NCBI RefSeq assembly: GCF_044647545.1
Contig: NZ_CP172818.1
Length of the DNA stretch: 64,000 bases
Source of the DNA: Escherichia coli
GTDB lineage: Bacteria; Pseudomonadota; Gammaproteobacteria; Enterobacterales; Enterobacteriaceae
Direction: 5' to 3' (one strand)
Numbering within the stretch: the stretch's first letter is position 1; each line of letters opens with the position of its first letter. Under the pieces are notes generated by a model. It did no database searches. It had not been told where the DNA came from and saw only the letters and a list, made by a program, of their open reading frames with translations. Of this stretch, positions 1,603 through 36,245 are shown piece by piece. Made by a program: the position numbers and the translations under genes.

Positions 1603-1796
1603 TTACTTTGCTCCATTCCGTGCTGGCTGCGCTTGCGGTCAGCACACCTCACTTCTCGTGATCAAGATCACATTCTCGCTTTCCCCTGCGACACGGGTGT
1701 CGAATCCATTTATTGCTGAACGTTAATGACCATCATTTTTGTACCGTTCAGAATCCAGTTAACACATAAATTATTGAATATATTAAATTAATCAGA

Positions 1797-1813
1797 CTGG
1801 CATCCTTTATGCA
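1797..1813 (+). promoter_or_regulatory. Sigma-54 (-24/-12) promoter of the hyf operon
   Basis: cTGGCATcctttaTGCAa: GG and GC separated by 10 nt, matching TGGCAC-N5-TTGCA; about 40 nt upstream of the hyfA ATG; operon encodes a sigma-54 activator (HyfR). Confidence 0.7.
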
Positions 1814-1854
1814 ATATGAAATGCAATGTTTCATATCATTTTCAAGGAGCCGAC

Positions 1855-2472
1855 ATGAACCGCTTTGTGGTGGCCGAACCACTGTGGTGTACAGGATGTA
1901 ATACCTGTCTCGCTGCCTGTTCGGACGTGCATAAAACGCAAGGTTTACAGCAACACCCGCGCCTGGCCCTGGCGAAGACGTCAACACTCACTGCCCCTGT
2001 CGTGTGTCATCACTGTGAGGAAGCCCCTTGCCTGCAGGTCTGCCCGGTCAATGCCATCTCCCAGAGGGACGATGCGATCCAACTCAACGAAAGCCTCTGT
2101 ATTGGCTGCAAGCTTTGCGCCGTGGTCTGCCCATTTGGCGCAATCAGCGCTTCAGGAAGCCGTCCGGTGAATGCCCCTGCGCAATATGTTTTTCAGGCTG
2201 AGGGCTCACTCAAAGACGGCGAAGAAAACGCGCCAACCCAACATGCTTTGCTGCGCTGGGAACCGGGTGTCCAGACCGTCGCGGTGAAATGCGACCTGTG
2301 TGATTTCTTGCCAGAAGGTCCGGCCTGCGTTCGCGCTTGTCCGAATCAGGCGTTACGGCTGATCACCGACGATAGCCTGCAACGTCAGATGAAAGAAAAA
2401 CAGCGCCTTGCCGCAAGCTGGTTTGCCAATGGCGGGGAGGATCCCCTTTCCCTCACTCAGGAGCAACGCTAA
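1855..2472 (+). CDS. hyfA: Hydrogenase-4 ferredoxin-like subunit (multiple 4Fe-4S Cys clusters)
   Basis: 205 aa from ATG 1855 after caaggag RBS; motifs CTGCNTCLAAC, CHHCEEAPC, CIGCKLCAVVCP, CDLC...CVRACP. Confidence 0.92.
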   Translation: MNRFVVAEPLWCTGCNTCLAACSDVHKTQGLQQHPRLALAKTSTLTAPVVCHHCEEAPCLQVCPVNAISQRDDAIQLNESLCIGCKLCAVVCPFGAISASGSRPVNAPAQYVFQAEGSLKDGEENAPTQHALLRWEPGVQTVAVKCDLCDFLPEGPACVRACPNQALRLITDDSLQRQMKEKQRLAASWFANGGEDPLSLTQEQR

Positions 2473-4490
2473 TGGATGCCCTGCAATTATTAACCTGGTC
2501 GCTGATCCTCTATCTGTTTGCCAGTCTGGCTTCGCTATTTTTACTCGGTCTGGACAGACTGGCTATTAAGCTTTCCGGCATCACATCGCTGGTGGGCGGC
2601 GTGATTGGCATCATCAGCGGAATTACGCAATTACATGCAGGCGTAACTTTAGCCGCCCGTTTTGCCACACCTTTTGAATTTGCCGATTTAACCCTGCGAA
2701 TGGATAGCCTCTCGGCATTTATGGTGCTGGTTATCTCCTTGCTGGTGGTGGTTTGTTCGCTCTATTCATTGACTTATATGCGCGAATACGAGGGTAAAGG
2801 CGCGGCGGCGATGGGCTTCTTTATGAATCTTTTCATCGCATCGATGGTTGCCCTGCTGGTGATGGACAACGCTTTTTGGTTCATCGTGCTGTTTGAAATG
2901 ATGTCGCTGTCTTCCTGGTTTCTGGTCATTGCCAGGCAGGATAAAACGTCGATCAACGCTGGCATGCTCTACTTTTTTATCGCCCACGCCGGATCGGTGC
3001 TGATTATGATCGCCTTCTTGCTGATGGGGCGCGAAAGCGGCAGCCTCGATTTTGCCAGTTTCCGCACGCTTTCACTTTCTCCGGGGCTGGCGTCGGCGGT
3101 GTTCCTGCTGGCCTTTTTCGGTTTTGGCGCGAAAGCCGGGATGATGCCGTTGCACAGCTGGTTGCCGCGCGCTCACCCTGCCGCACCATCGCACGCTTCG
3201 GCGTTGATGTCTGGCGTAATGGTCAAAATCGGTATTTTCGGCATCCTTAAAGTAGCGATGGATCTGCTGGCGCAAACGGATTTGCCGCTGTGGTGGGGCA
3301 TTCTGGTGATGGCGATCGGCGCAATCTCCGCGCTCCTGGGCGTGCTATATGCGCTGGCGGAACAGGATATCAAACGGCTGCTGGCCTGGAGTACCGTCGA
3401 AAACGTCGGCATTATTTTGCTGGCGGTCGGTGTGGCGATGGTCGGTCTGTCACTGCACGACCCGCTGCTCACCGTTGTTGGACTGCTCGGCGCGCTGTTT
3501 CATCTGCTCAACCATGCGCTGTTCAAAGGGCTGCTGTTTCTCGGCGCGGGCGCAATTATTTCGCGTTTGCATACCCACGACATGGAAAAAATGGGGGCAC
3601 TGGCGAAACGGATGCCGTGGACAGCCGCAGCATGCCTGATTGGTTGCCTCGCGATATCAGCCATTCCTCCGCTGAATGGTTTTATCAGCGAATGGTACAC
3701 CTGGCAGTCGCTGTTCTCACTAAGTCGTGTGGAAGCCGTAGCGCTACAACTTGCGGGTCCTATTGCTATGGTGATGCTGGCAGTCACTGGTGGGCTGGCA
3801 GTAATGTGCTTCGTCAAAATGTACGGCATTACTTTCTGTGGTGCGCCGCGCAGTACACACGCTGAAGAGGCACAGGACGTGCCAAATACGATGATCGTCG
3901 CCATGCTACTGCTCGCGGCACTCTGCGTATTCATTGCGCTTAGTGCCAGTTGGCTGGCACCGAAGATAATGCACATTGCCCATGCGTTTACCAATACCCC
4001 TCCCGTCACTGTCGCCAGCGGAATAGCACTTGTACCCGGCACGTTTCATACACGGGTCACTCCCTCATTACTGTTGCTGTTACTACTGGCGATGCCTTTG
4101 CTGCCTGGCCTTTACTGGCTGTGGTGTCGTTCGCGCCGCGCAGCGTTTCGTCGCACAGGAGATGCCTGGGCATGCGGCTACGGCTGGGATAATGCGATGG
4201 CCCCGTCAGGCAATGGCGTGATGCAGCCGCTGCGTGTGGTCTTTTGTGCGCTATTTCGTCTACGACAACAGCTCGACCCTACGCTGAGGCTGAACAAAGG
4301 TCTTGCGCACGTCACCGCCAGGGCTCAGAGCACAGAACCCTTCTGGGATGAGCGGGTGATCCGCCCCATCGTGAGCGCCACCCAACGGCTGGCCAAAGAA
4401 ATACAGCATCTGCAAAGCGGCGACTTTCGTCTCTATTGCCTGTATGTGGTCGCCGCACTGGTTGTGCTGCTAATCGCTATTGCCGTCTAA
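2472..4490 (+). CDS. hyfB: Hydrogenase-4 membrane subunit, NuoL/Mrp antiporter-like
   Basis: 672-aa polytopic hydrophobic ORF; start overlaps hyfA stop (TAATG). Confidence 0.92.
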   Translation: MDALQLLTWSLILYLFASLASLFLLGLDRLAIKLSGITSLVGGVIGIISGITQLHAGVTLAARFATPFEFADLTLRMDSLSAFMVLVISLLVVVCSLYSLTYMREYEGKGAAAMGFFMNLFIASMVALLVMDNAFWFIVLFEMMSLSSWFLVIARQDKTSINAGMLYFFIAHAGSVLIMIAFLLMGRESGSLDFASFRTLSLSPGLASAVFLLAFFGFGAKAGMMPLHSWLPRAHPAAPSHASALMSGVMVKIGIFGILKVAMDLLAQTDLPLWWGILVMAIGAISALLGVLYALAEQDIKRLLAWSTVENVGIILLAVGVAMVGLSLHDPLLTVVGLLGALFHLLNHALFKGLLFLGAGAIISRLHTHDMEKMGALAKRMPWTAAACLIGCLAISAIPPLNGFISEWYTWQSLFSLSRVEAVALQLAGPIAMVMLAVTGGLAVMCFVKMYGITFCGAPRSTHAEEAQDVPNTMIVAMLLLAALCVFIALSASWLAPKIMHIAHAFTNTPPVTVASGIALVPGTFHTRVTPSLLLLLLLAMPLLPGLYWLWCRSRRAAFRRTGDAWACGYGWDNAMAPSGNGVMQPLRVVFCALFRLRQQLDPTLRLNKGLAHVTARAQSTEPFWDERVIRPIVSATQRLAKEIQHLQSGDFRLYCLYVVAALVVLLIAIAV

Positions 4491-4500
4491 GGAAATCACC

Positions 4501-5448
4501 ATGAGACAAACTCTTTGCGACGGATATCTGATCATTTTTGCGTTAGCACAGGCCGTGATTCTGCTGGCGCTAACCCCGCTTTTTACGGGGATTTCCCGGC
4601 AGATACGCGCGCGTATGCACTCCCGTCGCGGACCGGGGATCTGGCAGGATTATCGCGATATCCACAAACTGTTTAAACGCCAGGAAGTTGCGCCGACATC
4701 TTCAGGTCTGATGTTCCGCCTGATGCCGTGGGTATTAATCAGCAGCATGCTGGTGCTGGCGATGGCCCTACCACTATTTATTACTGTTTCCCCTTTTGCG
4801 GGCGGCGGCGATCTGATCACCCTTATCTATCTTCTTGCCCTATTTCGTTTTTTCTTTGCTCTTTCCGGGCTGGATACCGGAAGCCCCTTTGCGGGAATCG
4901 GTGCCAGTCGCGAGTTAACGCTCGGCATTCTGGTCGAACCCATGCTCATTCTCTCACTGCTGGTATTGGCGCTGATAGCGGATTCCACGCATATCGAGAT
5001 GATCAGCAAGACGCTGGCGACGGGCTGGAACTCGCCGCTAACCACCGTACTGGCGTTACTGGCCTGTGGTTTTGCCTGCTTCATTGAGATGGGAAAAATT
5101 CCCTTTGATGTTGCTGAAGCAGAACAGGAATTACAGGAAGGCCCGCTGACCGAATATTCCGGTGCCGGGCTGGCGCTGGCGAAGTTGGGGCTGGGGCTGA
5201 AACAGGTCGTGATGGCATCACTGTTTGTGGCCCTGTTTCTGCCCTTTGGGCGCGCGCAAGAGCTTTCTCTCACCTGCCTGCTGACTTCACTTGTCGTTAC
5301 GCTGCTCAAGGTTTTGCTGATTTTTGTTCTGGCCTCTATCGCAGAAAACACGCTGGCACGCGGGCGATTTTTACTCATTCACCATGTGACCTGGCTTGGC
5401 TTCAGCCTTGCTGCGCTTGCCTGGGTCTTCTGGTTAACCGGTCTGTAA
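4501..5448 (+). CDS. hyfC: Hydrogenase-4 membrane subunit (NuoH/HycD-like)
   Basis: 315 aa from ATG 4501 (MRQTLCDGYLIIFALAQ...); hydrophobic; upstream ggaaatcacc RBS. Confidence 0.9.
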   Translation: MRQTLCDGYLIIFALAQAVILLALTPLFTGISRQIRARMHSRRGPGIWQDYRDIHKLFKRQEVAPTSSGLMFRLMPWVLISSMLVLAMALPLFITVSPFAGGGDLITLIYLLALFRFFFALSGLDTGSPFAGIGASRELTLGILVEPMLILSLLVLALIADSTHIEMISKTLATGWNSPLTTVLALLACGFACFIEMGKIPFDVAEAEQELQEGPLTEYSGAGLALAKLGLGLKQVVMASLFVALFLPFGRAQELSLTCLLTSLVVTLLKVLLIFVLASIAENTLARGRFLLIHHVTWLGFSLAALAWVFWLTGL

Positions 5449-5464
5449 GGAGCACTAACGGAAT

Positions 5465-6904
5465 ATGGAAAATCTTGCTCTGACGACGTTATTGCTGCCT
5501 TTTATCGGCGCACTGGTCGTTTCGTTTTCGCCACAACGTCGGGCCGCCGAATGGGGGGTTTTGTTCGCCGCGCTGACCACGCTGTGCATGTTGTCACTGA
5601 TCTCCGCGTTTTATCAGGCCGATAAAGTTGCCGTCACGTTGACGTTGGTCAACGTGGGGGATGTGGCGTTGTTTGGCCTGGTCATTGATCGCGTGAGTAC
5701 GCTGATTCTGTTTGTGGTGGTGTTCCTCGGTTTGCTGGTCACGATCTACTCCACGGGTTATCTGACGGATAAAAATCGCGAACACCTGCATAACGGCACG
5801 AATCGTTATTACGCATTTTTGCTGGTTTTTATCGGCGCGATGGCGGGACTGGTACTCTCCTCGACGCTGCTCGGTCAGTTGTTGTTTTTTGAAATTACGG
5901 GCGGCTGCTCCTGGGCGTTGATCAGTTATTACCAGAGCGATAAAGCGCAGCGTTCAGCACTAAAAGCGTTACTTATCACTCATATCGGTTCGCTGGGGTT
6001 GTATCTTGCCGCCGCCACGCTGTTTTTGCAGACCGGAACGTTTGCGCTTAGCGCGATGAGCGAGTTACACGGCGACGCACGTTATCTGGTTTATGGCGGC
6101 ATCCTGTTTGCCGCGTGGGGGAAATCGGCCCAGCTACCGATGCAAGCGTGGCTACCGGATGCAATGGAAGCGCCAACACCGATCAGCGCCTATCTCCACG
6201 CCGCATCGATGGTGAAAGTGGGCGTTTACATTTTTGCCCGTGCCATTATCGACGGCGGCAATATCCCGCATGTGATTGGCGGCGTTGGCATGGTTATGGC
6301 ACTGGTCACCATTCTTTACGGCTTCCTGATGTATTTGCCACAGCAGGATATGAAGCGGTTGCTGGCCTGGTCGACCATCACTCAACTTGGCTGGATGTTT
6401 TTCGGCTTGTCGCTCTCCATCTTCGGCTCGCGGCTGGCGCTGGAGGGCAGCATCGCCTACATCGTCAACCACGCGTTCGCTAAAAGCCTATTTTTCCTTG
6501 TAGCAGGTGCGCTGAGTTACAGCTGCGGCACGCGCTTGTTGCCGCGTCTGCGTGGCGTATTGCACACCCTGCCGTTGCCAGGCGTGGGTTTCTGCGTAGC
6601 CGCGCTGGCGATTACTGGCGTACCGCCGTTCAACGGCTTCTTCAGTAAATTCCCGCTGTTTGCCGCCGGTTTTTCGTTGTCAGTGGAGTACTGGATCCTG
6701 CTGCCCGCCATGATTCTGCTGATGTTTGAATCGGTCGCCAGTTTCGCCTGGTTTATTCGCTGGTTTGGTCGCGTCGTGCCTGGCAAACCGAGCGAGGCCG
6801 TCGCCGATGCCGCACCGCTGCCAGGATCAATGCGCCTGGTGTTGATTGTACTGATTGTGATGTCGCTGATTTCCAGCGTAATCGCCGCGACCTGGTTGCA
6901 GTAA
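5465..6904 (+). CDS. hyfD: Hydrogenase-4 membrane subunit, antiporter-like (NuoM/N family)
   Basis: 479-aa polytopic ORF, paralogous in character to hyfB and hyfF. Confidence 0.9.
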   Translation: MENLALTTLLLPFIGALVVSFSPQRRAAEWGVLFAALTTLCMLSLISAFYQADKVAVTLTLVNVGDVALFGLVIDRVSTLILFVVVFLGLLVTIYSTGYLTDKNREHLHNGTNRYYAFLLVFIGAMAGLVLSSTLLGQLLFFEITGGCSWALISYYQSDKAQRSALKALLITHIGSLGLYLAAATLFLQTGTFALSAMSELHGDARYLVYGGILFAAWGKSAQLPMQAWLPDAMEAPTPISAYLHAASMVKVGVYIFARAIIDGGNIPHVIGGVGMVMALVTILYGFLMYLPQQDMKRLLAWSTITQLGWMFFGLSLSIFGSRLALEGSIAYIVNHAFAKSLFFLVAGALSYSCGTRLLPRLRGVLHTLPLPGVGFCVAALAITGVPPFNGFFSKFPLFAAGFSLSVEYWILLPAMILLMFESVASFAWFIRWFGRVVPGKPSEAVADAAPLPGSMRLVLIVLIVMSLISSVIAATWLQ

Positions 6905-6915
6905 GGAGATGATGA

Positions 6916-7566
6916 ATGACCGGTTCTATGATCGTAAATAATCTGGCGGGACTGATGATGCTGACATCGCTGTTTGTGATTAGCGTCAAAAGCTATCGCC
7001 TGTCATGCGGATTTTACGCCTGCCAGTCGCTGGTGCTGGTGTCTATTTTCGCCACCCTCTCGTGCCTGTTCGTCGCAGAGCAACTGCTGATCTGGTCCGC
7101 CAGCGCCTTTATCACCAAAGTGCTGCTGGTACCGTTAATCATGATTTACGCTGCACGAAATATTCCCCAGAACATCCCGGAAAAAGCGTTATTCGGTCCG
7201 GCTATGATGGCATTGCTCGCGGCATTAATTGTCCTGCTTTGCGCATTTGTCGTTCAGCCCGTGAAGCTACCGATGGCTACCGGGCTGAAACCGGCGCTGG
7301 CGGTGGCGTTAGGTCATTTTCTGCTTGGCCTGCTGTGCATTGTCAGCCAGCGCAATATCCTGCGGCAAATTTTTGGTTACTGCCTGATGGAAAACGGCTC
7401 CCATCTGGTGCTGGCGCTTCTTGCCTGGCGTGCACCGGAACTGGTGGAAATTGGTATCGCTACCGACGCCATCTTCGCCGTCATTGTGATGGTGTTACTG
7501 GCAAGAAAAATATGGCGTACCCACGGCACGCTGGACGTGAACAACTTGACCGCGCTGAAGGGATAA
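6916..7566 (+). CDS. hyfE: Hydrogenase-4 small membrane subunit (NuoK-like)
   Basis: 216-aa hydrophobic ORF in operon context. Confidence 0.88.
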
Positions 7567-7570
7567 TGAG

Positions 7571-9151
7571 ATGAGTTATTCTGTGATGTTCGCTTTACTC
7601 CTGCTCACGCCGCTGCTTTTTTCGCTGCTCTGTTTTGCCTGCCGGAAATGGGGACACTCTGCGACTCGCACGGTGACAGTACTACATAGCTTAGGGATCA
7701 CACTGCTGCTGATTCTGACACTGTGGGTGGTCCAAACTGCCGCTGATGCGGGAGAAATATTCGCTGCGGGACTGTGGCTTCATATTGATGGTCTGGGCGG
7801 TTTGTTCCTCGCCATTCTTGGTGTGATTGGCTTTCTCACCGGTGTTTACTCGATTGGCTACATGCGTCATGAAGTGGCACACGGCGAGCTTTCACCCGTT
7901 ACGCTGTGCGATTACTACGGTTTCTTCCATCTGTTTTTGTTCACCATGCTGCTGGTTGTTACCAGCAATAACCTGATTGTGATGTGGGCGGCGATCGAAG
8001 CCACCACCTTAAGCTCGGCGTTTCTGGTAGGCATTTACGGTCAGCGTTCATCGCTGGAAGCTGCATGGAAGTACATCATTATTTGTACTGTTGGTGTCGC
8101 TTTTGGTCTGTTCGGTACCGTGCTGGTATACGCCAACGCCGCCAGCGTTATGCCGCAGGCAGAAATGGCGATATTCTGGAGCGAGGTTCTTAAGCAATCG
8201 TCCTTGCTTGACCCAACATTAATGCTGTTGGCCTTTGTGTTTGTGCTAATTGGCTTTGGCACCAAAACCGGGCTATTCCCCATGCACGCCTGGCTGCCAG
8301 ATGCTCACAGTGAAGCGCCGAGTCCGGTCAGCGCCCTGCTCTCCGCCGTATTGCTGAACTGCGCGCTATTGGTGCTGATTCGCTATTACATCATTATTTG
8401 CCAGGCCATCGGCAGCGATTTCCCCAACCGGTTGTTGCTCATCTTCGGCATGTTGTCGGTTGCCGTGGCGGCATTTTTCATTCTGGTACAGCGGGACATT
8501 AAGCGTCTGCTGGCGTACTCCAGCGTGGAGAACATGGGACTGGTCGCGGTGGCGTTAGGCATTGGCGGGCCGCTGGGAATTTTTGCCGCGCTGCTGCACA
8601 CCTTAAACCACAGTCTGGCAAAAACGCTGCTGTTCTGCGGTTCCGGCAATGTACTGCTCAAGTACGGCACGCGCGATCTCAACGTCGTCTGCGGAATGCT
8701 CAAAATCATGCCATTTACCGCCGTGCTGTTTGGCGGCGGTGCGCTGGCGCTGGCCGGGATGCCGCCCTTCAACATTTTTCTTAGCGAATTTATGACCGTT
8801 ACCGCCGGACTGGCGCGTAATCACCTGCTGATTATCGTCCTGCTGTTATTGCTGTTAACGCTGGTGCTGGCGGGCCTGGTACGGATGGCTGCGCGGGTGT
8901 TAATGGCGAAACCGCCGCAGGCCGTTAACCGGGGTGAACTTGGCTGGTTGACCACCTCGCCAATGGTGATTCTGCTGGTCATGATGCTGGCGATGGGAAC
9001 GCATATTCCACAACCTGTCATCAGGATCCTGGCGGGCGCTTCCACTATAGTCCTCTCAGGGACGCACGACCTGCCTGCACAACGTAGCACCTGGCATGAT
9101 TTTTTGCCTTCAGGCACCGCATCTGTTTCGGAGAAACACAGTGAACGTTAA
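7571..9151 (+). CDS. hyfF: Hydrogenase-4 membrane subunit, antiporter-like
   Basis: 526-aa polytopic ORF; third antiporter-like paralog in the operon. Confidence 0.9.
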
Positions 9152-10856
9152 TTCATCGTCAAATCGTGGCGAAGCGATTCTCGCCGCCCTGAAAACGCAG
9201 TTCCCCGGCGCGGTGCTGGATGAAGAGCGACAAACGCCTGAACAGGTCACCATTACGGTGAAAATCAATCTGCTGCCTGACGTTGTGCATTATCTTTATT
9301 ATCAACATGATGGCTGGCTTCCGGTCCTGTTTGGCAACGACGAGCGGACACTTAACGGTCATTACGCGGTTTATTATGCCCTTTCTATGGAAGGGGCCGA
9401 AAAATGCTGGATCGTGGTGAAGGCACTGGTCGATGCCGACAGTCGGGAGTTTCCGTCAGTCACACCGCGCGTCCCTGCCGCGGTCTGGGGCGAGCGAGAA
9501 ATTCGCGATATGTACGGGTTGATTCCGGTTGGCCAGCCGGATCAGCGTCGGCTGGTGTTGCCCGATGACTGGCCGGAAGATATGCATCCGCTGCGCAAAG
9601 ACGCGATGGATTATCGACTGCGCCCAGAACCGACGACTGATACCGAAACGTATCCGTTTATCAACGAGGGCAACAGCGATGCGCGGGTGATCCCTGTCGG
9701 CCCGCTGCATATCACCTCCGATGAACCAGGTCACTTCCGCTTGTTTGTGGATGGCGAGCAAATTGTCGATGCTGATTACCGCCTGTTTTATGTCCATCGC
9801 GGCATGGAGAAACTGGCAGAAACGCGGATGGGCTACAACGAAGTGACCTTCTTATCCGACCGCGTGTGTGGGATTTGCGGTTTTGCCCACAGTGTGGCCT
9901 ATACCAACTCGGTTGAAAATGCACTGGGGATTGAGGTGCCGCAACGAGCGCATACTATTCGCTCGATTCTGCTGGAAGTCGAACGGCTGCATAGTCATTT
10001 GCTCAACCTTGGCCTCTCCTGCCATTTTGTTGGTTTTGATACCGGCTTTATGCAATTTTTCCGCGTGCGGGAAAAGTCGATGACGATGGCGGAATTGCTG
10101 ACCGGGTCGCGTAAAACCTACGGTCTGAATCTGATTGGTGGTGTTCGCCGCGATATTCTCAAAGAGCAACGTCTGCAAACGCTGAAACTGGTGCGCGAGA
10201 TGCGCGCCGACGTGTCGGAGCTGGTAGAGATGTTGCTTGCCACGCCGAATATGGAACAACGCACTCAGGGCATTGGCATTCTCGACCGACAAATCGCCCG
10301 TGATTATAGCCCCGTAGGGCCGCTGATCCGCGGCAGTGGCTTTGCCCGTGATTTGCGCTTTGATCACCCCTACGCCGACTACGGCAATATTCCCAAAACG
10401 CTGTTTACCTTTACCGGCGGCGATGTCTTCTCCCGCGTGATGGTCCGTGTCAAAGAGACGTTTGATTCGCTGGCAATGCTGGAATTTGCCCTCGACAACA
10501 TGCCAGATACCCCACTGCTGACCGAAGGCTTTAGCTATAAACCTCACGCATTCGCGCTGGGCTTTGTTGAAGCGCCACGTGGTGAAGACGTGCACTGGAG
10601 CATGCTCGGTGATAACCAAAAATTGTTCCGCTGGCGCTGTCGTGCCGCCACCTACGCCAACTGGCCAGTGCTGCGTTACATGCTGCGCGGCAATACCGTT
10701 TCTGACGCACCGCTGATTATCGGTAGCCTTGATCCCTGTTACTCCTGTACCGACCGTGTGACGCTGGTTGATGTGCGCAAGCGCCAGTCAAAAACCGTGC
10801 CGTATAAAGAGATCGAACGCTACGGCATTGATCGTAACCGTTCGCCGCTGAAGTAA
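9141..10856 (+). CDS. hyfG: Hydrogenase-4 [NiFe] large catalytic subunit
   Basis: N-terminal NiFe ligand motif [10 protein letters not shown] and C-terminal DPCYSCTDR. Start ambiguous: GTG 9141 (overlaps hyfF stop by 11 nt) or ATG 9096. Confidence 0.9.
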
Positions 10857-10865
10857 GGACAGAAA

Positions 10866-11411
10866 ATGCTGAAGTTACTGAAAACTATTATGCGCGCCGG
10901 AACCGCGACGGTGAAATATCCCTTCGCGCCACTGGAGGTCAGCCCAGGCTTTCGCGGGAAACCGGACCTGATGCCCAGCCAATGTATTGCCTGCGGTGCC
11001 TGCGCCTGTGCTTGTCCGGCAAATGCGCTGACTATCCAGACCGACGACCAACAAAATACGCGCACCTGGCAGCTCTATCTGGGGCGTTGTATTTACTGCG
11101 GACGTTGTGAAGAAGTGTGCCCGACCAGAGCCATTCAGCTTACCAATAACTTTGAACTGACCGTCACCAATAAAGCCGATCTCTATACCCGCGCGACGTT
11201 TCATCTACAACGTTGCAGTCGTTGCGAACGCCCATTTGCCCCGCAAAAAACCGTCGCACTGGCTGCAGAACTGTTGGCACAGCAACAAAATGCGCCACAA
11301 AACCGCGAAATGTTGTGGGCGCAAGCGAGCATCTGCCCGGAATGCAAACAACGCGCGACGCTGATCAACGACGATACAGATGTACCGCTGGTGGCTAAGG
11401 AGCAGCTATGA
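10866..11411 (+). CDS. hyfH: Hydrogenase-4 ferredoxin-type subunit (2x 4Fe-4S)
   Basis: 181 aa; [12 protein letters not shown] and [12 protein letters not shown] motifs. Confidence 0.9.
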
Positions 11412-12166
11412 GTCCAGTGCTTACGCAACATGTCAGCCAGCCCATAACGCTGGACGAGCAAACGCAAAAGATGAAGCAGCATTTGCTACAGGATATCCGT
11501 CGCTCGGCTTACGTTTATCGCGTCGATTGCGGCGGCTGCAACGCCTGCGAAATCGAAATTTTTGCCGCCATCACACCCGTATTCGACGCAGAACGTTTTG
11601 GCATTAAGGTTGTTTCATCACCGCGTCACGCCGATATTTTGTTATTTACTGGCGCAGTCACCCGGGCGATGCGTATGCCTGCACTTCGGGCATATGAGTC
11701 TGCCCCCGATCATAAAATCTGTGTTTCCTACGGCGCGTGCGGTGTCGGCGGCGGTATTTTCCACGATCTTTACAGCGTCTGGGGCGGCAGCGACACCATT
11801 GTCCCCATTGATGTTTGGATCCCCGGCTGCCCGCCAACACCGGCCGCCACCATTCACGGTTTCGCCGTGGCGCTCGGTTTGCTGCAACAGAAGATTCACG
11901 CGGTGGATTATCGCGATCCCACCGGGGTGACCATGCAACCGCTGTGGCCGCAGATCCCGCCATCACAGCGTATCGCCATTGAGCGAGAAGCGAGGCGGCT
12001 GGCGGGCTATCGTCAAGGGCGAGAAATTTGCGATCGGCTCCTGCGCCATTTAAGCGACGATCCTACAGGAAATCGGGTTAACACCTGGTTGCGCGAAGCT
12101 GACGATCCACGTCTCAATAGTATCGTTCAGCAACTCTTTCGCGTTCTCCGGGGGTTACATGGCTGA
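11408..12166 (+). CDS. hyfI: Hydrogenase-4 small subunit (NuoB/HycG-like, Fe-S)
   Basis: 252 aa; CGGCNAC ... GACGVGGG ... PGCPP motifs typical of NuoB-type small subunits; overlaps hyfH stop. Confidence 0.9.
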
Positions 12167-12572
12167 GGAGTGCAGGGAAATTGTTTTCTGGACGCTGCGA
12201 AAAAAATTTATCGCCAGTAGCGACGAGATGCCGGAACACAGCTCCCAGGTAATGTATTACTCGTTGGCTATCGGTCATCACGTTGGCGTGATTGATTGTT
12301 TGAATGTCGCCTTCCGCTGCCCACAGACGGAATACGAAGATTGGCTTGCACAGGTCGAAGAGGAGCAAGCCCGACGTAAGATGCTGGGGGTGATGACTTT
12401 TGGTGAGATTGTTATTGACGCCAGCCACACCGCCCTGTTGACCCGGGCATTCGCGCCACTGGCAGATGACGCGACGTCGGCGTGGCAGGCGCGTAGCATT
12501 CAATTCATTCATCTGTTGGATGAAATTGTGCAGGAACCGGTCATCTATCTGATGGCCAGAAAAATTGCGTGA
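12159..12572 (+). CDS. hyfJ: Hydrogenase-4 maturation/assembly factor (HycH-like)
   Basis: 137-aa ORF overlapping hyfI 3' end; operon position. Confidence 0.85.
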
Positions 12573-12601
12573 GAAGGATTTCTCATTAATAAGGACTGTT
12601 G

Positions 12602-14614
12602 ATGGCTATGTCAGACGAGGCGATGTTTGCCCCGCCGCAAGGAATAACAATTGAAGCGGTAAACGGAATGCTCGCGGAGCGGTTAGCACAGAAACACGGC
12701 AAGGCGTCTTTATTACGCGCCTTCATCCCGCTGCCGCCGCCGTTCAGCCCGGTACAACTTATTGAACTGCATGTTCTCAAAAGCAACTTCTATTACCGCT
12801 ACCATGATGATGGCAGCGATGTGACGGCAACAACAGAGTATCAGGGTGAGATGGTCGATTATTCGCGCCACGCCGTCCTTCTCGGCAGTAGTGGAATGGC
12901 GGAGCTACGCTTTATTCGCACCCACGGCAGTCGTTTTACTCCCCAGGATTGCACACTGTTTAACTGGCTGGCACACATAATCACTCCGGTTCTGCAATCA
13001 TGGCTCAATGATGAAGAACAGCAGGTGGCGCTGCGTTTGCTGGAGAAAGATCGCGATCATCATCGGGTACTGGTGGATATCACTAATGCAGTGTTGTCAC
13101 ATCTTGATCTCGACGATCTGATCGCTGACGTCGCTCGTGAGATCCATCATTTTTTCGGTCTGGCTTCAGTCAGTATGGTACTGGGCGATCATCGAAAGAA
13201 CGAGAAGTTCAGCCTGTGGTGCAGCGATCTTTCTGCCTCACATTGTGCGTGTCTGCCACGCTGTATGCCTGGCGAAAGTGTATTGCTGACACAAACGCTA
13301 CAAACCCGACAACCGACCTTGACGCACTGTGCAGACGATCTGTTTCTCTGGCAACGCGACCCGTTATTACACTTACTTGCATCTAACGGCTGCGAATCTG
13401 CGCTCCTTATACCGCTCACCTTTGGCAACCATACACCGGGTGCATTGTTGCTGGCGCATACCTCTTCCACTCTCTTTAGTGAGGAAAACTGCCAGCTACT
13501 ACAACATATTGCCGATCGCATCGCTATTGCCGTTGGCAATGCCGATGCCTGGCGCAGCATGACCGATTTGCAGGAAAGCTTGCAGCAAGAAAACCACCAG
13601 CTTAGCGAGCAGCTCCTTTCGAATCTGGGCGTCGGTGACATTATCTATCAAAGCCAGGCAATGGAAGACCTGCTCCAGCAGGTAGATATTGTGGCGAAGA
13701 GCGACAGTACGGTGTTGATTTGTGGTGAAACCGGAACCGGCAAAGAGGTGATCGCCAGAGCGATCCATCAACTTAGCCCACGACGCGACAAGCCACTGGT
13801 CAAAATCAACTGCGCTGCCATCCCCGCCAGTCTTCTGGAAAGTGAGTTATTCGGTCATGACAAAGGGGCATTTACTGGTGCGATTAATACCCATCGTGGT
13901 CGTTTTGAAATTGCCGATGGCGGCACGTTGTTTCTCGATGAAATTGGCGATCTGCCGTTAGAACTTCAGCCTAAACTGCTGCGCGTATTGCAGGAACGGG
14001 AGATTGAGCGTCTCGGCGGGAGTAGAACGATCCCGGTAAATGTCAGAGTCATTGCCGCCACCAACCGTGATTTGTGGCAAATGGTTGAAGATCGCCAGTT
14101 TCGCAGCGATCTCTTTTATCGCCTGAATGTCTTCCCACTGGAACTGCCGCCACTGCGCGACCGTCCGGAAGATATCCCTCTTTTAGCAAAGCATTTCACG
14201 CAAAAAATGGCGCGCCATATGAATCGCGCAATTGACGCCATCCCGACCGAGGCGCTACGCCAGTTGATGTCGTGGGACTGGCCGGGCAACGTGCGCGAGC
14301 TGGAAAACGTGATTGAGCGAGCGGTACTACTGACTCGCGGTAACAGTCTGAATTTACATCTTAATGTCCGACAAAGCCGTTTACTGCCGACGCTAAATGA
14401 AGATTCAGCGCTTCGCAGTTCAATGGCGCAGTTACTGCACCCGACGACGCCAGAGAATGACGAAGAAGAACGTCAGCGCATTGTTCAGGTATTGCGAGAA
14501 ACCAATGGCATTGTTGCCGGGCCCCGTGGCGCGGCGACACGATTAGGGATGAAGCGCACCACGCTGCTGTCACGAATGCAGCGTCTGGGGATCTCGGTTC
14601 GCGAGGTGTTGTAA
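12602..14614 (+). CDS. hyfR: Sigma-54-dependent transcriptional activator of hyf (FhlA paralog)
   Basis: 670 aa from ATG 12602; Walker A GETGTGKE, sigma-54 contact motif GAFTGA, C-terminal HTH. Confidence 0.92.
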
Positions 14615-14635
14615 TCTGTTTTTGCAGGAGTATGC

Positions 14636-15484
14636 ATGAGAAACAAACTCTCTTTCGACTTGCAGTTGAGCGCCAGAAAAGCGGCAATCGCTGAACGGAT
14701 TGCCGCCCATAAAATTACCCGCAGCAAAGTGTCGGTCTTTTTAATGGCGATGTCCGCAGGCGTGTTTATGGCGATCGGATTTACTTTTTACCTTACCGTT
14801 ATCGCCGATGCCCCGTCTTCACAGGCATTAACCCATCTGGTGGGCGGCCTTTGCTTTACACTCGGCTTTATTTTGCTGGCGGTTTGCGGCACCAGCCTGT
14901 TCACCTCGTCGGTAATGACGGTGATGGCAAAAAGTCGGGGCGTTATTAGCTGGCGAACATGGCTGATTAATGCACTTCTGGTGGCCTGCGGTAATCTGGC
15001 AGGTATTGCCTGTTTCAGTTTGTTAATCTGGTTTTCCGGGCTGGTGATGAGTGAAAACGCGATGTGGGGAGTCGCGGTTTTACACTGCGCCGAGGGCAAA
15101 ATGCATCATACATTTACTGAATCAGTCAGCCTCGGCATTATGTGCAATGTGATGGTTTGCCTGGCGCTGTGGATGAGTTATTGCGGACGTTCGTTATGCG
15201 ACAAAATCGTCGCCATGATTTTGCCCATCACCCTGTTTGTCGCCAGTGGCTTTGAGCACTGTATCGCCAATTTATTTGTGATTCCGTTCGCCATTGCCAT
15301 TCGCCATTTCGCCCCTACCTCCTTCTGGCAACTGGCGCACAGTAGCGCAGACCATTTTCCGGCACTGACGGTCAGCCATTTTATTACCGCCAATCTGCTC
15401 CCGGTGATGCTGGGTAATATTATCGGCGGTGCAGTGCTGGTGAGTATTTGTTATCGGGCTATTTATTTACGTCAGGAACCCTAA
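14636..15484 (+). CDS. focB: Formate channel, FNT family
   Basis: 282-aa polytopic ORF at the end of the hyf operon. Confidence 0.9.
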   Translation: MRNKLSFDLQLSARKAAIAERIAAHKITRSKVSVFLMAMSAGVFMAIGFTFYLTVIADAPSSQALTHLVGGLCFTLGFILLAVCGTSLFTSSVMTVMAKSRGVISWRTWLINALLVACGNLAGIACFSLLIWFSGLVMSENAMWGVAVLHCAEGKMHHTFTESVSLGIMCNVMVCLALWMSYCGRSLCDKIVAMILPITLFVASGFEHCIANLFVIPFAIAIRHFAPTSFWQLAHSSADHFPALTVSHFITANLLPVMLGNIIGGAVLVSICYRAIYLRQEP

Positions 15485-15486
15485 AA

Positions 15487-15516
15487 ATCAGCCCGGCGAA
15501 ACAGTTCGTCGGGCTG
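15487..15516. terminator. Bidirectional hairpin terminator between focB and perM
   Basis: cagcccggcgaa-acag-ttcgtcgggctg stem-loop flanked by an A-run (left) and T-rich tract (right), between convergent genes. Confidence 0.6.
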
Positions 15517-19539: not shown

Positions 19540-20829
19540 TTATTTGTCTGTTATATCCGCGTCTTCTGCGTCCAGCACCACTTCTTCAGGGCGCAGCATA
19601 CTAATCAGTTTGAAGATCAAACTTAAGCCGATACCGACGATGGTCGCCAGCGCCATACCTTTCAGCTCCGCCGCGCCAATGTTTACCTTCGCGCCACTGA
19701 CGCCGATGATCAAAATAACGGAAGTCAGGATCAGGTTCTGTGCTTTGTTGTAATCCACTTTCGATTCGATCAACACACGAATACCGGAAGCACCGATGAC
19801 ACCGTAAAGCAGCAGCGAAACGCCGCCCATCACCGGCAATGGAATCATCTGGATAGCAGCAGCCAGTTTACCGACGCAGGAAAGCAGGATAGCGAAAATC
19901 GCCGCCCCGCCGATAACCCAGGTACTGTAAACACGGGTGATCGCCATCACGCCAATGTTTTCTCCGTAAGTGGTGTTTGGCGTGGAGCCAAAGAAGCCGG
20001 AGATCACGGTCGACAAGCCGTTAGCAAACATCGAACGGTGCAGACCTGGATCGCGCAGCAGATCTTTTTTGACGATATTAGCCGTTACCACCAGGTGCCC
20101 TACGTGTTCGGCAATAACCACTAACGCCGCTGGCAGAATAGTCAGAATGGCAAACCACTCGAAGCGCGGCGTATAGAGGGTCGGCAGCGCAAACCAGTGA
20201 GCATTAATAATCGGCGTGGTATCGACAATTCCCATTGCGAAAGAGAGCGCGTAGCCCACCAGCACGCCAATTAAAATCGGGATAATTGCCAGGAAACCAC
20301 GAAACAGCACGGAACCTAAAACCGTGACTGCCAAGGTGGTAATGGAGATGATGATGGTTTTGGAGTCTGGCGTTTGCCCTTCAGCCGGGAGTAAACCTGC
20401 CATACCGGCAGCTACGCCCGCCAGCTCCAGACCGATGACGGCAACGATTGCGCCCATTGCCGCAGGTGGAAACAGCACGTCCAGCCAGCCGGTCCCCGCT
20501 TTCTTCACGATAAAAGAAACCAGGCAGAACAGCACGCCGCACATAATAAAGCCGCCCAGCGCGACTTCATACCCTAACGGCAACAGTAACAATACCGGTG
20601 AAATAAAGGCAAAGCTGGAACCAAGATAAGCCGGGATTTTCCCTTTACAGATGAAGAGATACAGCAGCGTTCCTATACCGTTAAATAACAGTACAGTCGC
20701 CGGGTTAATATGAAATAAGACGGGCACCAGGACGGTTGCACCAAACATGGCGAACAAATGTTGCAAACTAAGCGGGATTGTCTGTAAAAGTGGCGGTCTT
20801 TCACTCACCCCGATAGCACGGCGCGTCAT
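19540..20829 (-). CDS. uraA: Uracil:H+ symporter (NCS2 family)
   Basis: 429 aa from ATG at 20829 ([16 protein letters not shown]...); polytopic. Confidence 0.93.

Positions 20830-34871: not shown

Positions 34872-36245
<1,374 letters not shown>

Follow-up and report, generated by a model that had tools for sequence, protein, structure and literature searches.

In the window, that is, the whole stretch of 64,000 nucleotides of E. coli DNA analysed here, the genes bcp (1132-1602) and hyfA (1855-2472), which match the RefSeq annotation of E. coli, flank an intergenic spacer of 252 bp, equal in length to the spacer of K-12 MG1655 (NC_000913.3 coordinates are obtained by adding 2,599,346 to the window position). 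Positions 1658-1671 of this spacer read GTGATCAAGATCAC, which can be written as GTGATC-AA-GATCAC, i.e. two perfect 6-bp arms separated by 2 bp. Each arm contributes one GATC, at 1660-1663 and 1666-1669, and no other GATC is found in the spacer. A previous reading of the sequence alone had pointed out this inverted repeat with its two Dam sites and had placed it about 140 nt upstream of a sigma-54 promoter. Both statements hold, as the repeat is present where described and its centre lies 134.5 bp from the first G of the -24 GG, on the upstream side. The elements of the bcp-hyfA regulatory region, with their window coordinates, are the following.

1620-1645, plus strand: stem-loop 3′ of bcp, GTGCTGGCTGC-GCTT-GCGGTCAGCAC, -9.8 kcal/mol, z = -3.0
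1657-1672, no strand: CRP-cAMP site, 16-bp core CGTGATCAAGATCACA; the footprint would be 22 bp, 1654-1675; centre 1664.5, corresponding to -160.5
1658-1671, no strand: inverted repeat GTGATC-AA-GATCAC, making up the 14 central bp of the CRP site
1660-1663, no strand: first Dam site (GATC), K-12 NC_000913.3 2601006-2601009; GATG in strain 2017.06.04CC
1666-1669, no strand: second Dam site (GATC), K-12 2601012-2601015
1689-1702, no strand: second inverted repeat, CGACAC-GG-GTGTCG, a perfect 6-2-6 repeat; candidate HyfR/FhlA enhancer (upstream activating sequence, UAS)
1727-1742, no strand: conserved block TGACCATCAyTTTTGT, the most conserved of the spacer, invariant in seven of seven aligned sequences but for one Y
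1767-1779, minus strand: IHF-like site ATTCAATAATTTA, one mismatch to WATCARNNNNTTR, between the putative enhancer and the promoter
1798-1813, plus strand: sigma-54 promoter TGGCATCCTTTATGCA, TGGCAT-N5-ATGCA (-24/-12), kept in orthologues
1855-2472, plus strand: hyfA, with which the regulated operon hyfABCDEFGHIJR-focB begins

As a single strand the repeat has little tendency to fold (-2.5 kcal/mol, z = -1.3) and is thus a palindrome for protein binding rather than a structural hairpin; a hairpin or cruciform reading was dropped on this ground. The idea that the repeat might be a piece of the bcp terminator was abandoned as well, since another structure, the stem-loop at 1620-1645, serves in that capacity. 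This stem-loop, which ends 12 bp before the CRP site begins, probably closes the bcp transcription unit. A terminator scan of positions 1560-1900 did not call it, no T-run being present. At the corresponding position of Citrobacter and Kosakonia, a G+C-rich inverted-repeat sequence followed by a T-rich sequence can be recognised in the alignment, as judged by eye and from the unfolded sequence. An imperfect short direct repeat is also found at 1648-1679, bracketing and overlapping the CRP site, with copies TCACTTCTCG (1649-1658) and TCACATTCTCG (1669-1679); it may be due to chance.

When the repeat is extended by one base on each side, the resulting 16-mer (1657-1672) matches the TGTGA-N6-TCACA core of a CRP site at nine positions out of ten. 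To score it, a symmetric weight matrix was built from the 106 other CRP sites of the ETEC H10407 ChIP-seq table (Haycocks et al. 2015), with the hyf site left out; the consensus of this matrix is TGTGATCTAGATCACA. The hyf site reaches 18.99 bits of a maximum possible 22.05 and is the top match in the 64-kb window, a score never attained when 64 kb were simulated 200 times with a first-order Markov model. Among the validated sites, whose median is 12.73 bits, just three of the 106 score as high. In other words, the hyf sequence displays the dyad of a CRP operator, with its 6-bp spacer and a score within the validated range. The consensus CRP operator AAATGTGATCTAGATCACATTT and strong natural sites such as that of ycfQ/bhsA, TGTGATCTGGATCACA, share with hyf the 16-bp dyad, the 6-bp spacer and a GATC in both half-sites. 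With respect to the consensus operator, the right half of the hyf site, TCACATT, is perfect, whereas the left half opens with CGTGA, where the consensus has TGTGA, and the centre reads AA in place of TA or TG. As to the rest of the window, the runner-up match, with 16.18 bits, is TTTGATCTCGCTCACA (34887-34902), which the ChIP-seq and RegulonDB tables contain as the known guaB/xseA site, and two weaker CRP-like sequences, of about 14 bits, are TGTGATTAGCGTCAAA (6975-6990), located between hyfA and the end of focB (15484), and GGTGATCGCCATCACG (19936-19951).

Published data agree with this assignment. In the ChIP-seq study of ETEC H10407 (Haycocks et al. 2015), a CRP peak at 2,810,983 is listed with the motif CGTGATCAAGATCACA and assigned to ETEC_2586, hyfA, so that, according to this published peak, the site is occupied by CRP in vivo. 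Binding in vitro by the purified protein is documented by the genomic SELEX-chip of K-12 (Shimada et al. 2011), in which the bcp>/>hyfABCDEFGHIJR-focB spacer appears at 2.59903e+06 with the sequence TGTGATCTTGATCACG; this is the reverse complement of CGTGATCAAGATCACA, and about 2,599,030 is the K-12 version-2 coordinate predicted from the window. hyfA is also counted among the known CRP targets recovered by SELEX. Moreover, the RegulonDB table given in Shimada et al. 2011 records CRP as an activator of hyfABCDEFGHIJR-focB, at -160.5, with the sequence TCTCGTGATCAAGATCACATTC. This catalogued K-12 site is base for base identical to window positions 1654-1675. The hyf transcription start is said to lie 30 bp before hyfA, and from such a start the centre of the window site falls at -160.5, in agreement with the catalogued position. 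Expression of hyf reportedly requires cAMP-CRP. The role of activator attributed to CRP at hyf is based on this reported requirement together with the RegulonDB entry, and a table with EcoCyc annotation likewise names CRP-cAMP among the regulators of the hyf unit. A near-identical CRP site, CGTGATCAAGATCACG, with a ChIP-seq peak and two GATCs of its own, is found in ETEC H10407 at about 1,811,426, inside the ETEC-specific gene ETEC_1668A. The inverted repeat is, therefore, the core of the catalogued CRP site of the hyf operon, already known in RegulonDB and EcoCyc. The sequence-only reading had considered that it could not be assigned to a known regulator from sequence, a judgement that does not stand for a near-consensus CRP site listed as activating at -160.5; CRP was, in fact, one of the proteins whose binding it wanted tested, and the matrix score, ChIP-seq, SELEX and RegulonDB all identify the repeat as a CRP site.

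FNR was another of those candidates, and the repeat could be thought of as an FNR site (TTGAT-N4-ATCAA) activating hyf under anaerobiosis. CRP and FNR belong to the same family, and the outer positions of their sites tell them apart (GTGA for CRP, TTGA for FNR). The 14-mer fits the FNR consensus at eight positions out of ten and shares first place among the FNR-like matches of the spacer, but, read as GTGAT-CAAG-ATCAC, it has its two mismatches precisely at the discriminating outer G and C, and 49 equally good FNR matches occur in the window. Orthologous sites, in addition, retain TGTGA/TCACA rather than TTGAT/ATCAA. FNR is a regulator of hyf in the table annotated from EcoCyc, and FNR-dependent regulation has been reported in earlier work; furthermore, the FNR sites predicted by Myers 2013 include precisely GTGATCAAGATCAC (K-12 version-2 coordinate 2599026, PWM score 13.04). 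The same study, however, puts this site among the 'silent' predictions, with no ChIP-seq peak in anaerobic growth. An FNR site is thus predicted here, yet it is unoccupied in vivo in those data, and this explanation of the repeat appears very doubtful indeed.

The conservation of the spacer was evaluated in a scan of one genome per species, in which 45 hyfA loci were retrieved. At exactly six of them, all from Citrobacter or Kosakonia, bcp is the immediate upstream neighbour, as it is in E. coli. All six carry a CRP site of 15.8-18.7 bits located at -186 to -191 from the ATG (-190.5 in E. coli), whereas the other hyfA loci and coding-region controls do not exceed 10.8 bits. In the alignment the spacers have diverged except for a few blocks, namely the CRP half-sites, CGACAC..TGyCG, the block at 1727-1742, an A/T block that includes the IHF-like match, and the sigma-54 elements. 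In particular, TGA and ATCACA of the CRP half-sites are invariant in seven sequences from three genera, their position being fixed within 5 bp, while the six central bases differ between genera; that is, the half-sites are conserved while the spacer drifts. In each of the eight sequences from the three genera the CGACAC block lies 31 bp from the CRP centre, and the distance between the CRP site and the -24 GG is 132-134 bp across the orthologues (the same count gives 134 for E. coli).

Within E. coli, a 61-bp segment was found in 4,287 of 5,426 complete genomes. In four strains sampled from the class with 95-99% identity, the variants fall in the flanks or on the C of the left GATC, which is not a contact base, and GTGA and TCAC are never hit. 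One of these is strain 2017.06.04CC, in which a C-to-G change at window position 1663 converts GTGATC into GTGATG, with loss of one Dam site and of the perfect palindrome and with the CRP core intact. The strain of the window differs from K-12 at a few flanking positions (1644, 1650 and further downstream), none of them within the CRP site. Another alternative is a chance palindrome devoid of function. Generic perfect 6-2-6 inverted repeats are indeed common, with 21 in the 64-kb window against about 15.6 expected, but two of them fall within the bcp-hyfA spacer against 0.06 expected, and GTGATCNNGATCAC as a specific pattern is found a single time in the window, where 100 shuffles give an expectation of 0.00. 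Since no other sequence in the 64 kb has a CRP score as high, ChIP-seq and SELEX both show binding, and the position is kept across three genera, the probability that the repeat is a product of chance is vanishingly small.

The position of the repeat had previously been taken as that of a site for enhancer-binding proteins or architectural factors. A reading along these lines holds that the repeat is the upstream activating sequence of the sigma-54 enhancer-binding proteins HyfR and/or FhlA. It lies upstream of the sigma-54 promoter, at roughly the distance of an enhancer, and purified HyfR is reported to bind the hyf promoter region. Nevertheless, no motif is shared between GTGATC/GATCAC and the regions bound by FhlA at fdhF (TTTCGTCACGTCAAAACTGACGACAG) and at hyc-hyp (GTGTCGACGTGTCATTTCGACATCATCGACA), and what these regions do have in common with the hyf spacer, the motifs GTGTCG, CGACA and GAC(C)ATCAT, corresponds to the blocks at 1689-1702 and 1727-1742. 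More precisely, GTGTCG and CGACA of the 1689-1702 repeat recur in the FhlA-bound hyc-hyp spacer, and the 1727-1742 block resembles CGACATCAT of the same spacer. As judged from these resemblances, the two blocks, which are the best conserved stretches of the spacer in the three genera, probably constitute the HyfR/FhlA enhancer. CRP, for its part, fully accounts for the repeat, and at fdhF a CRP site distinct from the FhlA enhancer lies immediately upstream of it, so that it is extremely unlikely that the repeat itself is the activating sequence for HyfR or FhlA. The earlier view is thus correct in recognising a site for a regulatory protein upstream of the sigma-54 promoter, but not in making it the site of an enhancer-binding protein, as the motifs of the FhlA-bound regions match blocks located 25-80 bp further downstream.

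The fdhF gene, which encodes formate dehydrogenase-H and belongs to the same formate regulon, offers a close term of comparison (K-12 NC_000913.3, approximately 4,299,370-4,299,560). Its upstream region shows the same order of elements, with the CRP site CGTGATGGCTGTCACG followed by the FhlA enhancer and by the sigma-54 -24/-12 elements, and the CRP sites of fdhF and hyf are both present in the same ETEC ChIP-seq experiment. The two regions differ in the distance from CRP to the -24 GG, 112.5 bp at fdhF and 134.5 bp at hyf (the 22 bp between these values amount to about two helical turns), and in the number of GATCs in the CRP site, none at fdhF and two at hyf. As for the remaining elements of the hyf promoter, the table annotated from EcoCyc also names IHF among the hyf regulators and an IHF ChIP-chip signal has been noted at the locus, while in genomic SELEX with the K-12 RpoN holoenzyme the hyf sigma-54 promoter is among the strongest peaks (92%, and 100% with NtrC).

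At sigma-70 promoters of class I and II, CRP is usually found at -41.5, -61.5 or -92.5, whereas at hyf it is found at -160.5 of a sigma-54 promoter, and a location upstream of the enhancer of such a promoter is unusual for CRP. One could suppose that CRP serves, in class-I fashion, a weak sigma-70 promoter, ATGACC-17-CAGAAT (1726-1754), and not the sigma-54 promoter. Genomic SELEX with the RpoD holoenzyme has in fact reported this sequence as a 'constitutive promoter' between bcp and hyfA, and the CRP centre lies about 95 bp upstream of its presumed start. Against this, a consensus scan of positions 1560-1900 gave no sigma-70-like promoter, the -10 hexamer is not kept in Citrobacter and Kosakonia, where the sigma-54 elements and their distance from the CRP site are, and RegulonDB ties the site to the sigma-54 start. 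A role of the CRP site at the sigma-70 sequence instead is, as a consequence, highly unlikely.

On the whole, it can be held with high confidence that the inverted repeat is the core of a high-affinity CRP site at -160.5 of the sigma-54-dependent hyf promoter, where CRP co-activates with HyfR/FhlA. In the mechanism that can be proposed, scarce glucose and high cAMP would lead a CRP dimer to bind the 16-bp core, one arm of the palindrome for each subunit. CRP would then co-activate hyfABCDEFGHIJR-focB with HyfR/FhlA, whose probable sites are 31 and about 70 bp downstream, and IHF and the sigma-54 RNA polymerase would complete the assembly. The centre of the 1689-1702 repeat is exactly 31 bp from that of the CRP site, and since 31 bp is about three helical turns, CRP and the enhancer would be exposed on the same face of the helix. 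The action of CRP might accordingly proceed through the DNA bend of about 90 degrees that it would impose, or through a cooperative contact with the activator bound at the enhancer on the same DNA face; either of these is likelier than a contact with the alpha subunit of RNA polymerase of the kind used at sigma-70 promoters. CRP thus probably works at hyf by bending or by cooperative assembly of the HyfR/FhlA-IHF-sigma-54 complex. These considerations place hydrogenase-4 under catabolite control, as the operon needs cAMP-CRP beside sigma-54 and HyfR/FhlA, a link already contained in RegulonDB and EcoCyc. To this the present analysis makes modest additions, namely that the position of CRP and the 31-bp spacing are fixed in Escherichia, Citrobacter and Kosakonia and the GATCs are not, and that fdhF has the same order of elements. 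The physiological weight of the hyf CRP site is uncertain, because hyf is nearly silent in ordinary K-12 cultures.

The two Dam sites had raised the question of whether binding to the repeat could be sensitive to methylation, which is at present a speculation. The occurrence of GATC in a CRP site is not exceptional: 39 of the 106 validated sites (37%) contain at least one, against 5.7% of random 16-mers taken from the window, and three contain two. The optimal CRP half-site being TGTGATC, the presence of two GATCs at hyf finds an explanation in the closeness to the consensus. The orthologues keep a strong CRP site with different spacers and zero or one GATC, which indicates that the Dam sites are a by-product of the CRP consensus. 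It is known that the MG1655 genome as a whole shows significant under-methylation at CRP sites, that CRP blocks Dam at the nanA promoter of Salmonella, and that the CRP-bound regions of mtlA, flhD and gcd in E. coli were detected through in vivo protection from methylase. At all these loci, as at hyf, a GATC is found in or next to the CRP site; Dam protection or under-methylation was measured there, whereas the likeness of hyf is one of sequence. By analogy, it is plausible that bound CRP passively hinders Dam methylation at the hyf GATCs.

A more elaborate possibility is that, besides CRP binding, the paired GATCs act as a Dam-dependent epigenetic switch of the pap/agn43/opvAB type, in which occupancy and methylation are mutually exclusive and hyf is heritably ON or OFF. 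In favour of this idea, both GATCs fall inside the half-sites contacted by the protein, and the under-methylation of CRP sites in MG1655 and the occlusion of Dam by CRP at nanA, mtlA, flhD and gcd go in the same direction. However, GATC is intrinsic to the CRP consensus, which itself contains two, and the numbers found in the aligned CRP sites (2/1/0/0/0/1/1) do not show conservation; one E. coli strain even has GATG with its CRP core intact. The variability of the GATCs, as opposed to the fixed position of CRP and the fixed 31-bp spacing, argues against a dedicated methylation function. Known Dam switches, besides, need competing sites or a second regulator, for example Lrp or OxyR. Neither competing sites nor a second regulator of this kind were seen at hyf, and such a switch is distinctly improbable. 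Furthermore, the hyf site was not found among the dynamically methylated or under-methylated GATCs in the searchable, partial supplementary lists of Westphal 2016, a 2023 bioRxiv 6mA study and Bacmethy; the sole hyf GATC in the methylation supplements searched is intragenic, in hyfR. It is equally a very improbable proposition, and a shade more so, that exclusion between CRP occupancy and Dam methylation leaves a heritable, unmethylated and CRP-loaded state in a subpopulation of cells. If it were true, bistability of hyf might help to explain the long-standing 'silent' look of the operon in bulk laboratory cultures. In this respect, the GATG variant of strain 2017.06.04CC represents a ready-made allele for probing the effects of methylation.

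A further observation concerns the distribution of the hyf module, comprising the regulatory region, hyfA-R and focB (window 1652-15512, 13,861 bp), which is missing in about 1,130 of 5,424 complete E. coli genomes. The left breakpoint of the module lies 5 bp before the CRP site, which makes this site the outermost element of the module. In strain O18, an example of a strain that does not carry hyf, bcp is followed by approximately 44 bp and then by yfgO/perM. The 44-bp filler of the hyf-less strain can be aligned with window positions 1668-1705 with 25 identities out of 38, including CCCTGCaACAC versus CCCTGCGACAC, a marginal likeness equalled in 24 of 2000 shuffles and surpassed by better chance matches elsewhere in the window. 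On the basis of this resemblance, the filler may be a decayed remnant of hyf, which would point to a deletion of hyf rather than to its insertion.
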